From contig CALSNU010000002.1 in NCBI GenBank assembly GCA_943787795.1, positions 96,001 through 160,000 on the forward strand: 64,000 nt of DNA, read 5' to 3'. Every line of letters starts with the position of its first letter. The stretch's first letter is position 1. The position numbers and the translations under genes are program-made. Source of the DNA: an uncultured bacterium. Its GTDB lineage: Bacteria > Planctomycetota > UBA1135 > GCA-002686595. Shown in pieces: positions 11,701 through 18,710 of the stretch. The notes below the pieces were generated by a model, which made no database searches, was not told the origin of the DNA, and saw only the letters and a program-made list of their open reading frames with translations.

Positions 11701-12003
11701 GGGCGTCTTTGACTCGGGGTCCGATGAGCGGGTCCGCCATCTTCGGTCAACGAACGCCGCCGTCCAGAGTCGGCGCTCAGTTCCGCCTTCCGAACGGCGA
11801 AGCGGCGAGCCCGCAGGCCCCTCCTCAGGACCGGGACGTAAGGCGAGCGGCCCCCGATTCAGCCCGCCTGGCTCGTCTCGGGACGATGCACACACCCCTC
11901 TACGGTGTCGCCACTGGCGGTCCCTTCGCGCTCCCCGCAGAAGTTCGATAGCCTCGATGCAGCGGCGAGCCGGCCGCGCCCAGAACCCCTTCCCCGAATT
12001 CAA

Positions 12004-13074
12004 ATGAACCGTCTGCTCTACGGACTCGCTGCCGCGATCGCCACAGGTGGCGTCACCCTTGCCCAGCAACCCTCCATCTACGTCGATATCGGCAGCGTTT
12101 CTGGGGGAGCAGGCACCCCTGCCACCACCTTCGGGGCCGCCGCGTCCGTCGGCGGATTCTGGAACGATCTCGACCTCGACTTCGTCGCTGGACCGGTCCT
12201 CGTGAGCCCGCCGCTCAACGACATCAGCAGCAGCCCAACCGCCGTGACGCTGACCTGGGACGGGCTCGGTACGGACCCGCTGCCGCTCTTCTTCGACGAG
12301 CTGTGCACGACAGGCGACGACCAGGCGCTCATGGACGACTGCGGGTACATCGGCGGCTCCAGTCAGTTCCGCTTTGACGGCCTGCCCGGCGGGACCTACA
12401 CGGTCCTGACCTACGCCATGGCCCCGGACAGCGCGGCCTTCCTCACCAACGTCAACGTCCCGGGATCTCTCGACCCGGCGCAGGACGTGGGCGGCGACTT
12501 CTGCCTCGGCTACGCCCTGGGAATCACGCACTCACAGCACACGGTGACCGTGGGTGTGGGCCAGCCCCTGGTGATCGACGTCTCCGTCACCGCCTCGTTC
12601 GATAGCCTGAATGGCATCCAGATCTTCCCGGGTACAGGCCCGAGCTTCGGGACGAGCTACTGCGGACCGGCGGTGACGAACTCGTCGGGTGCGCCCGCGG
12701 TGATCAGCGTCACCGGGACGCCGCTCGTCTCGCTGAACGACTTCAACCTCGTCTGCAGCTCTATGCCCTCGAACTCCTTCGGCTTCTTCCTGGTCAGCCA
12801 GTCCCAGGGCTTCGTCGCCAACCCGGGTGGCAGCCAGGGCAACCTCTGCCTGGGCGGGGCCATCGGCCGCTACGTCGGCCCCGGGCAGATCCTCAACTCG
12901 GGATCAGCAGGCACCATCACCCTCCCCGCGGACCTGACCATGATTCCCAGCCCCACAGGGTTCATCGCCGCGGCGCCCGGTGACGTGTTCAACTTCACCA
13001 CCTGGTTCCGGGACTCGTCCATGGGCGTGGCGACCTCGAACTTCGCCCAGGGCGTCGAGGTGACGTTCCAGTAG
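12004..13074 (+). CDS. Secreted protein with conserved ~140-aa C-terminal domain
   Basis: Signal peptide [22 protein letters not shown]-terminal domain nearly identical to that of 53866-54960. Confidence 0.85.
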
Positions 13075-13137
13075 AGCCCGACGTGAGGGAGCGAAGAGCC
13101 CCTCATCCTGGCCCTGCGGGATCGCCCGTAGACGAAC

Positions 13138-13175
13138 GAAGGAGGCCCCGCAGCGAATGCTGCGGGGCCTCCTTC
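13138..13175. terminator. Bidirectional hairpin terminator between convergent genes
   Basis: GAAGGAGGCCCCGCAGC-GAAT-GCTGCGGGGCCTCCTTC, perfect 17-bp stem. Confidence 0.8.
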
Positions 13176-13207
13176 TCGATGGGGCGCCGCGAACGGCGCC
13201 GCGGGCA

Positions 13208-13552
13208 TCAGAGCGTCGCCGAGAAGCGCGTGCCCTCGAAGGCGGCGATCAGCGCCTTCGGCTCAACGTTCGCTCCTGCGCAATCGACCGTCGCGGTCTT
13301 CTTGTCGTAGTCCACCACGACATCGGACTCTTCGATTCCGTCGAGCTCAGCAAGTGCAGACCGCACTTGCGGGGGGCAGCCCGCGCCTCATGTCATGCCC
13401 GTGAGCCGGAGCGTCACGGTCTGGGCTTTGGCGACGCCCATGCCGGCGGCGTTGCCGTCGGCCGGGGCGTTGGTCGTGTCGATTTCGGTGGTCTCGGCCG
13501 TGCAGGCCACAAGGCCAAGCGCGAGCGCCGCGGGAAGTAGGGTCTTGAACAT
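13208..13552 (-). CDS. HMA (MerP/CopZ-like) metal-binding lipoprotein, putative selenoprotein (TGA at codon 55 read as Sec); absent from the ORF track
   Basis: MFKTLLPAALALGLVAC..QTVTLRLTGMT*GAGCPPQVRSALAELDGIEESDVVVDYDKKTATVDCAGANVEPKALIAAFEGTRFSATL; TGA at 13390-13388 sits at the Cys of GMTC and HMA similarity continues in frame after it. Confidence 0.85.
13350..13370 (-). promoter_or_regulatory. Putative bacterial SECIS element
   Basis: mRNA GCAAGUGC-GGUCU-GCACUUGC, perfect 8-bp stem starting 17 nt after the UGA; G-containing loop; GGUCUGCAC resembles the E. coli fdhF SECIS apical sequence. Confidence 0.8.
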
Positions 13553-13667
13553 GTTGATCTGGGTGATGGTGAGGGGACCACACTAGTGTAGCTCAAGTCC
13601 GCCGGACCCCACATGCCGGCAAGAGCGCGCCTGCCCCCCCCTGCCTGGTCTCCCTGAGCCGTCCCGC

Positions 13668-14418: not shown

Positions 14419-15651
14419 ATGAATCAGCAACCCCGACACCGAGCCGCCGCGCTCATCGCCCTCTCCCTCGCGGCGAGCTGCGCGCCAGAGTCCCCGCAGA
14501 GCGCGAGCGCCGCAGGGGCCGGAGCTGAGCGGGCCGCCCCCGTCGAGGTCGCTGACATCGAGATCGGACCCCTGACCGAGCGGCGCGTGTTCACCGGAAC
14601 CCTCGAGGCCTCGGCAGAGGTCGTGGTCGCACCGCGCGTCGCCGGCAACGTCGAGCGCCTCTCCGTGGACATCGGCGACCCCGTCGAGAACGGCCAGGTC
14701 ATCGCGTGGATCGACGACGATGAGCTGGTGCAGGCCGTGGCCCAGGCGGAGGCGGATCAGGCCGTCGGTCGGGCCACCCTTGAAGAGGCCGAGGCCTCAG
14801 CGAATCTGGCCAAGCGGGTCCTCGCGCGCCAGGCGCAACTCCAGCAGGAGGGCATCGCGTCCTCGGCCGAGTTGGAGAGCGCCGAGGCCGCCGACGCCGC
14901 CAGCCGAGCCATGGTCGCCGTCGCGAAGGCCAGGGTCGTACGGAGCGAGGCCTCCCTTGAGACCGCGCGCGTGCGCCTGGGACAGACACGGATCGTGGCC
15001 GAGTGGGAGGCGCCCGCCGCTTCGATCCACAAGGACCGCCCCGCCGGCGACGGCTCGGGGGCGCCCGCCGGCCCGTCCAGGTACATCGCCGAGCGCTTCG
15101 TCGACGTGGGCTCTATCGTCAACTCGAGCACGCCGATCCTCTCGCTCGTCGCGCTCGACCCCATCGTCGCCGTGATCTTTGTCCCCGAGCGCGACTTCTC
15201 GAGGCTCGCCGTGGACCAGCGAGCGAGCTTCACGACCGACGCTTATCCGGGCCAGTCATTCGAGGGGCGCGTGGCGCGCATCGCGCCCGTCTTTCGACGG
15301 AGCACCCGGCAGGTCCGCGTCGAGCTCGAGGTCGACAACGCCGACCTGCGGCTCCGACCCGGCATGTTCGTCCGCGCCACGCTCGAGCTTGATCACGCAG
15401 AAGACGCGACCATCGTGCCCGTGGACGCCCTGACGGCGCGCGACGGCATCGAGGGCGTCTTCGTCCTCCCGCTCGGCGCGAAGACCGTCCGATGGGCCCC
15501 GGTCCAACGCGGCTTGCAGGAGGACGCCAGGGTCCAGGTCTTCGGCGACGGGCTCTCCGGCGGGGTCGTGGTCCTTGGGCAGGAGCTCTGCGATGACGGC
15601 AGCGAGGTGAGCGTGTTTGACGCCGGGCCCAACGCCAACGGCGGGCGATGA
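14419..15651 (+). CDS. RND efflux periplasmic adaptor (membrane fusion protein)
   Basis: Lipobox-like LAASC; lipoyl half-motifs [20 protein letters not shown]; coiled hairpin; LRPGMFV; stop overlaps the RND start (ATGA). Confidence 0.92.
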
Positions 15652-18600
15652 GCCTCCCCGCCGCCAGCGTCCGGCGCCCGGTCTTCGCGACCATGGTGTC
15701 GCTCATGGTCGTGGCCCTCGGCGTCTTCGCCCTGGGCCGCCTGAGGATCGACCTCCTGCCCGAGGTGGAGATGCCCTCGTGCACGATCCGGACCACATAC
15801 GAGGGCGCGAGCCCAGAGGTGGTCGAGCGCCTCGTCACGCAGATCATCGAGGAGGTGGCCGCCACGGTCCCCGGGGTGGAGGAGATCGAGTCCACGTCCC
15901 TGGAGGGGTCGAGCCGCGTCACGGTCCGCTTCGGGTATGGCGTCAACGTCGACGCCGCGGCCATCGACCTGCAGGCCCGCGTGGACCAGGAGGTGGACGA
16001 GCTTCCCGACGAGGTGACCCGCCCCCGGGTCCAGAAGTTCGACATCGGCAGCTTCCCCATCGTGATCCTGGGGGTCAGCAGCAAGCTCGACCCCGTGGCC
16101 CTGACCCAGCTGGTGGAGGACCAGATCCGCTTCCGCTTCTCGCGGATCCCCGGCGTGGCCCAGGTGGACCCCTGGGGCAGCTTCACGCGCGAGGTCCGGG
16201 TCGAGCTCGACCCCCAACGACTCAACGCCCTGGGAATCCCCCTCGACCGCGTGCTCACCGCGCTGCGGGAGGCCAACCTGGACCGCCCGGCCGGCCAGCT
16301 GGAGGAGGGTCGCTACGAGGTGACCCTGCGGGCGCCAGCGGAGTTCCAGACCCTGGACGAGATCCGAGACACGGTGATCCTCGAGCGCGGCGACGGCGCC
16401 GTCACCGTCGGTCAGATCGCCGTGGTGAAGGACACCTACGAGAAGCTTGATCGCTACGTCCGCGTGGACGGCGACCTCGGGCTCAGGGTGGCGATCCGGA
16501 AGCAGTCCGACGCCAACACCGTCGAGGTCGCCAAGGCCATCCTCGAGGAGGTGGAGCGCGTCAATGTGGCTTACCCCCAGCTCAACGTCGTCGTCACCTC
16601 CAACCAGGGCGACTTCATCCGCCGCTCCATCGACAACGTGGCGAGCTCGGTCCTCTACGGGAGCGCGTTCGCGATCCTCGTGCTGCTCTTCTTCCTCCGG
16701 AGTCTGCGCAGCACCCTCGTCATCGCGGCGTCGATCCCGATCTCCATGGTGGCGACCTTCGCCCTCCTCGAGCTCGGCGGGCTGACCCTCAACCTCATGA
16801 CCCTCGGGGGCCTCGCTCTCGGCGTCGGCATGATGGTGGACAGCTCGGTGGTCGTCCTGGAGAACATCTTCCGCCGGCGCAGCGAGTATGGAGAGGACGC
16901 CGTGACCGCCTCGGTCACCGGCGCCGAGGAGGTGGCCAGCGCCATCCTCGCGAGCACGATCACGACCCTGGTCATCTTCCTCCCCCTCGCCTTCATCGAG
17001 GGCGTGGCCGGCGCGCTGTTCGGCGAGCTGGCCCTCGTCGTCGTCTTCAGCCTGATCTGCTCGCTGCTCGTCTCCCTGAGCCTCGTCCCCGTCCTCGCCT
17101 CCAGGCTCCTCGCGCGGCCGAGCTCCCAGGGCTCCTTCGCTGCCTTCGCCGAGCGCGGGTTCCAACGCCTCGATAGCGCCTACGCTGGGCTCCTACGACG
17201 CGCCGTCCGCCGGCCCCTCGTGGTGGTCGCCCTGTCCGGCGCGGCGCTCGGTGCCAGCCTGCTCCTCTACCCCCTCATCGGGACCGAGTACCTGCCCCCC
17301 AGCGACGAGGGCGAGGTGCGAGTCACCGGGGAGATGGCCGTGGGCACCCGGCTCGACCTCGTGGACCGCCAGACCCGCCGGATGACAGCGCTGGCCATGC
17401 CGCTGGTTCCCGAGCTTGTGTCCAGCGTGGTCTCCGTCGGACCCGGCTGGCGCGGCACCGTCTCGGCCCAGGGAGACATCCAGATGTCTCTCGTCCCCGC
17501 GCGGGAGCGCACTCGGTCCAACGCCGAGATCGCGGACGCCCTTCGAGCCGCCCTCTCGGGGCAAGTCGCCGGCATGTCGATCCGGACCCGCGCACCCGAG
17601 GGGCAGTTTCTCTTGCAGCGCGTGCTCGGGAGCGAGGGCGGCGTGGAGATCGAGGTCCGCGGCCCTGACCTTGACGTCCTCGAAGGCCTCGCGGCCCACG
17701 CCGCGCGCATCGCCGAGGAGACGCCCGGCGTGACCGACGTCACGGTCAGCCGGCGCGCCGGGACGCCCCAGCAGGAGATCCTCGTGGACCGGGGCAAGGT
17801 GGCCGACGTCGGGCTCTCCGTCCGCGACGTGGCGCGGGTCCTGGAGGTGGGCTTCGCCGGCGCTCGAGCGGGCGAGTTCCGCGCGGACGGTAACTCGTAT
17901 CGGATCCTCGTCCAGCTGGAGGACGCCGAGCGACGCTCCATCGACGAGGTGCTGGACATGACCCTGAGCACCCCGGGGGGCGACGCGGTCGCCTTGCGGA
18001 ACCTCGTCGACGCCAAGCCGAGCCGCGGCCCCCTCGTGATCGAGCGCAAGGACCAGCAGCGCGTGGTCACGGTCTCCGCCAATGTCGCAGGCCGGCCCGA
18101 AGGGTCCGTGGCCCGAGACCTGCAAGCCGAGCTCACCGCGCTTCCGCGGCCCCGGGGGCACGCGGTCGAGGTGGCGGGCACGTTCGAAGAACAGGAGAAG
18201 GCGACGCGCGAACTCGTGCTGTCGTTCCTGCTGGCCATCGCCCTGGTCTACATGGTGCTCGCCTGCCAGTACGAGTCCCTGCGCGACCCCCTGGTGGTCA
18301 TGCTCTCGGTCCCCTTCGCGGCCATCGGCGTCCTGGTGACGCTGCACCTCACCGGTACGACCCTCAACATCCAGAGCGCCATTGGCTGCATCGTCCTGGG
18401 CGGGGTTGTGGTGAACAACGCCATCCTCCTGGTCGATCAGGCCGGGCGCCTGGTCCAGGACGGCACCCCCGTGCGCGAGGCGGTGGCCGAGGCCGGCCGT
18501 CGCCGCCTCCGACCGATCCTGATGACGACGCTCACCACGGTCCTGGCGCTCCTCCCCCTGGCCTTCGGGATCGGGGAGGGCGCCGACGCCCAGGCGCCCC

Positions 18601-18710
18601 TGGCGCGCGCCGTGGTCGGCGGACTGGTCGGGTCGACCCTGATCACCCTCTTGCTCATCCCGGCCGCCTACACCCTCGTCCGACGCTCCGAGGCCCCCGA
18701 GCCCGCCTGA
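15648..18710 (+). CDS. RND efflux transporter permease (AcrB/AcrD/AcrF family)
   Basis: SVRRPV start; [39 protein letters not shown]; 1020 aa. Confidence 0.96.

Follow-up and report, generated by a model that had tools for sequence, protein, structure and literature searches.

A predicted selenocysteine-containing HMA lipoprotein with its own SECIS hairpin in Planctomycetota

We analysed a 64,000-nt stretch of planctomycete DNA, called the window here as a whole, and found on its minus strand a 114-residue reading frame with an ATG start (13552-13208) that is absent from the list of open reading frames because each of its halves is short; an earlier note on this DNA, made from the letters alone, had claimed such a missed frame, and it is indeed present. 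The translation runs MFKTLLPAALALGLVAC...TVTLRLTGMT-U-GAGCPPQVRSAL...FSATL with the loop GMT-U-GAG-C-PP, U marking an in-frame TGA that we read as selenocysteine (Sec). The features of the locus are:

13552-13208, minus strand: Sec-HMA lipoprotein gene, 114 aa including the predicted Sec55, ATG start, true stop TGA at 13210-13208
13502..13552, minus strand: putative lipoprotein signal peptide with the lipobox LVA-C17 at its end, from the sequence pattern
13424..13501, minus strand: low-complexity variable tether, residues 18-43, from sequence comparison
13211..13423, minus strand: HMA (MerP/CopZ-like) domain, residues 44-114, from PF00403, AlphaFold2 and Foldseek
13388..13390, minus strand: predicted Sec55, the in-frame TGA at the first ligand of GMT-U-x3-C, aligned with the first Cys of MerP
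13376..13378, minus strand: Cys59, the second ligand, followed by a conserved Pro-Pro, from the family alignment
13350..13370, minus strand: SECIS hairpin GCAAGTGC-GGTCT-GCACTTGC over the codons P-Q-V-R-S-A-L, from bSECIS constraints, codon bias and covariation
13138..13175, no strand assigned: GC-rich strong hairpin, probable terminator (fold z -7.6)

On one side of the gene lies a divergently oriented gene for an RluA-type pseudouridine synthase, on the other a convergent, unannotated gene at 11905-13074 (+). The product of this second neighbour has 389 aa, looks exported and matches nothing in Pfam or NCBIfam. Its C-terminal part (~12770-12900) recruits many contigs that are 90-95% alike and is therefore probably a repeated domain in the lineage. 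Between the two convergent genes lies the strong hairpin at 13138..13175, which the terminator scan did not call because it has no T-run. The promoter scan upstream of the Sec-HMA gene returned no sigma-70 site, and no shared operator-like motif was seen by eye in 76 upstream regions. On the plus strand, 14419-18710 encodes an RND adaptor and permease with a best score of the multidrug type, below the CusA/CzcA cut-off, and by score it is not a CusA-type pump. No conserved metal operon was found among 100 representative neighbours scanned; beside the plain lipoprotein lie housekeeping genes of unrelated function, different ones in different genera. Metal-related neighbours occur only beside a multi-domain U-x3-U subfamily (one MerT-HMA), which adjoins MerT-HMA genes and a sigma-54 regulator, and in one further case as an adjacent HMA paralogue.

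The protein begins with a positively charged start and a hydrophobic stretch, followed by a lipobox Cys (MFKTLLPAALALGLVA-C; a pattern-based assignment with no false-positive control), the LVAC described in the earlier note being found at residues 14-17. This lipobox pattern is kept in 76 of the 88 TGA-bearing copies of the family, with a spacing of 21-43 residues from lipid-Cys to Sec, and the product is thus probably an exported, lipidated envelope protein. Its read-through translation matches PF00403 (E 9e-10, 39.2 bits against a cut-off of 24.8), and the TGA at 13390-13388 is codon 55, aligned to the first Cys of MerP, which is the metal-ligand position that had been claimed for it. The GMT preceding the first ligand is kept in >90% of copies, and the Cys59 position is itself TGA in 4 of the 81 x3-spaced TGA copies. 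In the AlphaFold2 model (64 sequences, U entered as C; mean pLDDT 89.6) the domain takes the beta-alpha-beta-beta-alpha-beta HMA topology of a ferredoxin-like fold, with residue 55 just ahead of helix 1 and Cys59 in the first turn of the helix, and Foldseek matches it to ATP7B domains, MerP, NmerA, PacS and CopZ (TM 0.74-0.82). By sequence, MerP and ATP7B are nearest, each with a one-residue loop gap: U-x3-C carries a one-residue insertion against both and departs from the CxxC of HMA domains.

The TGA stands in public contigs, with no TGC or TGT in its place; an independent seawater run (X5) gave a contig of 2675 nt that crosses the codon and reads the same, and TGA55 is not an assembly error. 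The best 14 DNA matches to the locus come from marine runs. Contigs of RNA runs from one study, possibly the source study itself, also cover the gene (X15, 13050-13393; X16, 13375-13619), a weak hint in which strand and level are not readable. The source genome (G000; 4.7 Mb, 85% complete) carries selA, selB and selD over their cut-offs together with a tRNA-Sec of anticodon TCA, and its SelD is itself a selenoprotein, with an in-frame TGA in C-U-x-x-K.

We found that the protein search matched 87 of the 174 genomes of the family, in which 105 domains at 90 loci were read, leaving out nine weak stop-free matches, mostly in long frames. TGA occupies the first ligand in 88 domains from 71 of the 174 genomes and 30 genera, comprising 76 U-x3-C, 4 U-x3-U, 1 U-x3-W and 7 UxxC, and the 17 remaining domains are 12 CxxC, 4 C-x3-C and 1 S-x3-C; among the x3-spaced domains (n=86) there are 81 TGA, 4 Cys and 1 Ser. 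The in-frame UGA is aligned to Cys in the 4 family C-x3-C copies, in 13 C-x3-C domains elsewhere in the phylum and in MerP. Homologues thus carry TGA or Cys at this codon and conserve the hairpin, which bears out the Sec reading proposed in the earlier note. The stop codons of the relatives vary (TAG 39, TGA 36, TAA 9; n=84), whereas codon 55 is constant, and the distance from Sec to the true stop is 57-63 codons in 83 of 84 relatives. Close database relatives, 70-94% identical, belong to Planctomycetota, in support of the planctomycete origin that the earlier note thought probable; all eight of near length terminate exactly at GMT, and C-terminal halves are stored apart as entries of 52-59 aa, one of them named 'copper chaperone CopZ'. 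The Cys form in G155 was set aside as evidence: it keeps the whole hairpin and the near-identical P0007 ends at GMT, so that a recent change or an error is possible. In a tree of 186 domains (quick method, 71 columns, 99 of 182 branches open) Cys forms are scattered among Sec forms, the order of Sec and Cys events not being inferable from it. We also observe tandem pairs of Sec-lipoprotein genes at 12 loci (L043, L044, L045, L047, L048, L050, L051, L054, L057, L058, L075 and L077), with a different hairpin in the downstream copy of six and UxxC in the upstream copy of three.

The perfect hairpin GCAAGTGC-GGTCT-GCACTTGC had been reported in the earlier note and is there, with 8 bp at 13370-13350, starting 17 nt past the TGA. 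It lies within all the published bSECIS constraints (loop of 3-9 nt, stem of 4-16 bp, G in the first two loop positions, 16-37 nt from UGA, MFE <= -7.5), with the loop GGTCT, 8 bp, 25 nt and -12.0 kcal/mol. In E. coli fdhF, GGTCTGCAC is indeed present downstream of the Sec codon, as the earlier note says, and the same 9 nt surround the loop here; unlike in fdhF, the loop is ~7 nt farther from the UGA (25 vs 18 nt), there is no bulged U and no lower stem is needed. The Rfam scan of the locus gave eight weak matches, none to a SECIS family. Stability as evidence on its own was set aside, since the folding z-scores are near zero (-0.55 to +0.25, not significant against chance) and 57 of 354 coding-like TGA contexts of G000 pass a generic bSECIS filter written from the published constraints; the hairpin is raised above chance because it is conserved across relatives. 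In the 81 x3-spaced TGA copies, the Ala codon at +11 is GCA in 73 (8.9% elsewhere in the same genes), the Ser codon at +10 is TCT in 45 (5.4%), the Val codon at +8 is GTG in 74 (31%) and the Arg codon under the stem is CGG in 43 (18%). Among 75 distinct sequences, a stem pair whose 3' base falls on a silent Leu position is A-U in 30 and G-C in 28, and 6 genera contain both forms. In the unselected alignment 84% of cells pair. The covariation score is reached by 0 of 500 shuffles and all six slid controls are lower, relatedness inflating such measures, and two of the five covariation measures are unexceptional (40 and 77 of 500 shuffles). Judging from this strong synonymous constraint and compensatory change, the hairpin is selected as RNA. 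The canonical stem is absent in 12 of the 88 TGA copies, six of which are second members of tandem pairs; most of the 12 fold another G-loop hairpin at an allowed distance, and the idea of a SECIS acting in trans on the downstream tandem copies was set aside, as their own G-loop hairpins fold there. Two Cys copies (G155, G113) retain the hairpin, and the three remaining non-TGA copies lack it.

These comparisons bear directly on whether the TGA could instead be a genuine stop, mark a pseudogene, come from a sequencing error or encode Trp by reassignment. What such readings have in their favour is that the hairpin taken alone is unexceptional and that the Sec reading rests on comparative, not protein-level, data. 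Against a stop or an artefact, 81 of the 86 x3-spaced domains, from 30 genera, have TGA together with an intact domain downstream, and the first ligand switches between TGA and Cys, never to Trp; reassignment to Trp is further contradicted by the 36 of 84 genes that end in an ordinary TGA stop, and a sequencing error by the agreement of independent contigs. We therefore regard all of these readings as very improbable, and UGA55 as almost certainly a selenocysteine codon with its own SECIS.

Other genes of G000 also contain in-frame TGA. By their motifs we take these to be FdhA (UHAP), a SelW-like gene (CxxU), an AhpD-like gene and several thioredoxin-like UxxC genes, and the GGTCT loop is common to the hairpin described here and to those of the presumed FdhA and SelW-like genes. 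Further candidate Sec codons were noted at C4:265626 and C4:265386 (-), C6:69376 and C6:70103 (+), C1:189924, C7:99960, C8:5572, C3:277088, C2:620327, C2:247580, C2:428135, C2:479457, C8:38656, C4:327374, C1:589883 and C4:645494. Thioredoxin-like UxxC, CxxU and UHAP are the recognisable motifs among the candidates; SGKG-U-SAG and PGLT-U-SDT (in one frame), as well as FDT-U-STYW and PDL-U-SSFW, have no recognisable one. These sites suggest that G000 holds a large unannotated selenoproteome.

Within the family, selA is present in 163 of 174 genomes, and the three TGA carriers without it comprise two with a tRNA-Sec and one whose genome is 64% complete. Upon extending the analysis to a phylum sample of 401 genomes, with up to 14 candidates scored per genome, at least 108 genomes match the profile and at least 48 have a TGA inside the match; selA accompanies 48/48 of these TGA carriers against a baseline of 288/401 (checked by eye; kin not independent). 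Reading 65 loci, we found Sec at the loop in 42 genomes and in one further case cut by a contig end, from 24 other families, in the form of lipoproteins, soluble exported proteins, proteins with 2-3 Sec-bearing repeats and MerT-like fusions. The Sec domains read in the phylum sample are exported or MerT-fused, and none of the sample's HMA matches in frames >700 aa has a TGA. A metagenome scan with one family member gave 11 loci, mostly CxxC, with one U-x3-U and one C-x3-C lipoprotein (L166:1812-1931, GMT-U-AFG-U; L163:2001-2144, GMT-C-EIG-C).

In a profile search of 1.8 billion representatives, the best 150 matches are all multi-domain. Fifty of these best 150 contain C-x3-C HMA repeats (GMxC-x3-C, often GMMCQKNCG), among them P0011-P0014, P0017, P0024 and P0054. 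P0012, P0024 and P0054, which carry such repeats, score over the cut-offs for heavy-metal and copper P-type ATPases; these three scanned copper-type P1B-ATPases are 1127-1325 aa long and by length probably eukaryotic. The wider x3 spacing is compatible with a metal role because C-x3-C repeats sit on heavy-metal P-type ATPases. The three-residue spacing, which the earlier note called unusual, is not unique in itself: Cys versions of it occur at the N-termini of P1B-ATPases as well as in HMA proteins that are exported.

The usual partners of such a domain are largely missing. The sole HMA match in G000 is this gene, and none of MerT, MerA, P1B-ATPase, CusA or PCuAC is over its cut-off in this 85% complete genome, leaving no evident receiving partner; a COX2 subunit and two Sco proteins are present. 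Within the genus, 9 of 17 genomes (78-90% complete) show no P1B-ATPase, with 147 of the 174 family genomes having one, and MerT occurs in 3 of 63 family genomes sampled. The gene thus persists where these classical partners are missing. The Sec gene is found in 16 of 27 genomes without a P1B-ATPase vs 55 of 147 with one (7 of the 27 by elimination; kin not independent). An anti-correlation with these pumps is not upheld, given this non-independence, and our claim is confined to the gene needing no pump.

We consider a stand-alone, lipid-anchored binder of soft metals made by UGA recoding to be the likeliest account as a whole, held with slightly better than even confidence. SelB would bind the hairpin at 13370-13350 and bring Sec-tRNA to UGA55, and the product would be exported and, by its lipobox, lipidated at Cys17. 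A flexible tether would then hold out a single HMA domain in the envelope. Where its helix 1 begins, the selenolate of Sec55 and the thiolate of Cys59 may bind one soft metal ion as Se-M-S, much as MerP and CopZ do through two thiolates. At physiological pH a selenol is ionised, and it recovers more readily from oxidation; these properties suit an oxidising compartment and would favour Sec there. The protein would act alone as a membrane-anchored buffer or holder, with no dedicated MerT or P1B-ATPase partner, Cu(I) being the likeliest physiological ion and Hg(II) and Ag(I) being captured too. Metal binding through the U-x3-C loop is suggested by the HMA fold and the GMT motif and by three relatives with a U-x3-C/U domain behind a MerT-like domain, and copper by COX2 and two Sco proteins in G000 in which no PCuAC match was found. 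Of the proposal that this is a metal chaperone or scavenger (Hg/Cu/Ag), the fold and the few fused relatives speak for the metal part, and the locus without metal genes and the absence of the usual partners speak against it.

It is this absence of a metal operon, MerT, MerA, P1B-ATPase and CusA that makes a redox role a real rival, in which U55 and C59 would alternate in the envelope between a selenol/thiol pair and a selenenylsulfide, with exported thioredoxin-like proteins restoring the reduced form and with metal binding incidental. Such a role is possible, with perhaps a minor share of the probability: in G129, G128 and G105 a fusion joins U-x3-U domains to WCxxC thioredoxin domains, G000 has several UxxC thioredoxin-like TGA genes, MerP is known in an oxidised structure (1osd), C-x3-C is the spacing of Sco according to a passage of PMC11213822, and a passage of PMC13188914 has the characterised selenoproteins as mostly redox enzymes. 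The thioredoxin fusion, however, fits equally well with keeping a metal site reduced, the fold is HMA and not thioredoxin, the GMT is kept ahead of the first ligand, and the same domain occurs on MerT-like transporters and, in Cys versions, on copper ATPases. A MerP equivalent, capturing Hg(II) for a MerT-type importer, with MerA then reducing the ion, could explain why MerP makes up two of the three best PDB sequence matches and shares the QTVTL start and the Cys-Pro at the second ligand, why Cys homologues in databases are named MerP, and why MerT fusions occur in three other families. We judge it improbable, as G000 has neither MerT nor MerA over the cut-off, the gene is far commoner in the family (71/174) than MerT (3/63 sampled), the MerP model gives 39.3 bits vs a cut-off of 92.55, and an Hg-Se bond would be hard to release. 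More improbable still is a carrier, store or sensor of selenium that would hold Se, or in which Se supply would decide whether the full protein or a lipidated stub of 38 residues is made. The tandem pairs at 12 loci, the 2-3 Sec-bearing repeats of other families and the prevalence of selA (163/174) agree with it; one Sec per 114 residues makes a poor store, intact-frame Cys versions persist in selA genomes, and the loop, together with the second ligand, is conserved as a site.

Returning to the soft-metal binder, a bolder form of it, in which the Sec-HMA lipoprotein would be the main copper buffer or delivery chaperone for the copper oxidase in marine members that, like G000, show no P1B-ATPase, CusA, MerT or PCuAC, and part of a selenium-based envelope metal module of Planctomycetota, is doubtful. 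If true, Se supply would, via UGA read-through, set the capacity for copper and mercury, and expansion of the module would have given rise to tandem genes, to multi-Sec repeats and MerT fusions, and to a six-Sec thioredoxin/PDZ fusion. Even the metal role as such, should it hold, would link the way a common marine lineage handles copper and mercury to its supply of Se. The recoding adds a selenoprotein family that is widespread in Planctomycetota. Its members appear in databases as two pieces, one a stub with GMT at its end and the other a 52-residue 'CopZ' that lacks the motif, and annotation thereby hides the metal site. Sec as a metal ligand of chaperones is predicted and little tested, and a 72-residue soluble domain with natural U-x3-C, C-x3-C, U-x3-U and UxxC variants offers a test of selenium in metal binding.

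Among known systems, MerP has a CxxC with two Cys, is soluble and is encoded in mer operons beside MerT and MerA. The protein described here resembles it (TIGR02052; PDB 1afi, 1osd) as an exported single HMA domain with a GMT-ligand loop and a Pro after the second ligand, and differs in the predicted Sec, the extra loop residue, the predicted lipid anchor and the lack of mer genes; it falls outside TIGR02052 by score (39.3 bits, as above) and has no merT/merA context in a genome that is 85% complete. HMA-fold selenoproteins are known (NF041115, NF045683 and the UxxC of ATPases), and the class is, as the earlier note had allowed, not entirely new. NF041115 (UxxU_metal_bind), a metal-binding selenoprotein and the 'putative mercuric reductase' of the Olavius symbiont survey, also has Sec in the metal loop of an HMA-like domain and is the best NCBIfam match (E 6e-12). 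Table 1 of PMC13188914 gives it a UxxU motif, which has two Sec, in contrast to the U-x3-C-PP on a lipoprotein found here; the score is 45.5 bits vs 95, the 74-position model covers residues 41-113 only, and the best of 64 members reaches E 1.2e-16, against 8e-12 for 45 bits. NF045683, a MerT/CopZ fusion-like heavy metal transport selenoprotein, likewise has a Sec-bearing CopZ-like domain, and some relatives of our gene are MerT-fused; compared by model score, however, it is a 235-position fusion and the protein here lacks the MerT part, scoring 37.5 bits vs 375 in the C-terminal part only, with 61-70 for three MerT-fused relatives.

In three other families, L135:761-1324 (+), L141:1474-2154 (-) and L143:1450-2109 (-) have a MerT-like domain fused to a U-x3-U/U-x3-C HMA domain, L135 with a TGA also at the MerT Cys pair (SVCU), and all three are below the NF045683 and NF033556 cut-offs. 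A larger protein was observed at L091:1527-3281 (+) in genome G129, a 585-codon frame with six in-frame TGA, for which no NCBIfam model was over its cut-off; 2-3 Sec per protein is the upper range in the table of PMC13188914. Its domains are, in order, a signal peptide, HMA (U-x3-U), HMA-like (UxxU), thioredoxin (WCAPC), PDZ and a thioredoxin-like domain with adjacent TGA-TGA (GAET-U-U-P). This last domain type (also in L210-L224) occurs in 15 of 174 family genomes, 14 of them with both TGAs, and its CGAGAG/CTCTCG hairpin is mostly conserved; in G129, 64% complete, no selA and no tRNA-Sec were found.

Table 1 of PMC13188914, with 119 families, includes UxxU metal-binding, UxxC cation ATPase and MerT-type selenoproteins, and no U-x3-C and no HMA lipoprotein. 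A U-x3-C HMA family is not described in the literature searched, which mostly excludes subscription papers, nor in the passages available from 10.1101/2022.07.06.499078, PMC12013277, PMC1976440, PMC11213822 and PMC9312934. The accessible text of the BSepDB paper (PMC13326102) does not mention the family; its species list includes planctomycetes, and the database may hold members. The UxxC P1B-ATPase (TIGR01525; PMC13188914 Table 1) shares Sec in a heavy-metal ATPase motif and, unlike the protein here, is a large membrane pump. BaCopZP1-3 of Bizionia (Flavobacteriaceae) are, in the passages seen of PMC11213822, exported CopZ-like HMA proteins, one of them encoded alone, but they are predicted proteins with Cys only. 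The lipoprotein of the marine contig L163 has a lipobox and GMT-C-x3-C as an HMA lipoprotein, again with Cys only. Standing outside MerP, NF041115 and NF045683 by these sequence comparisons, the gene is best described as a real, unannotated selenoprotein gene whose product resembles an exported MerP/CopZ domain.
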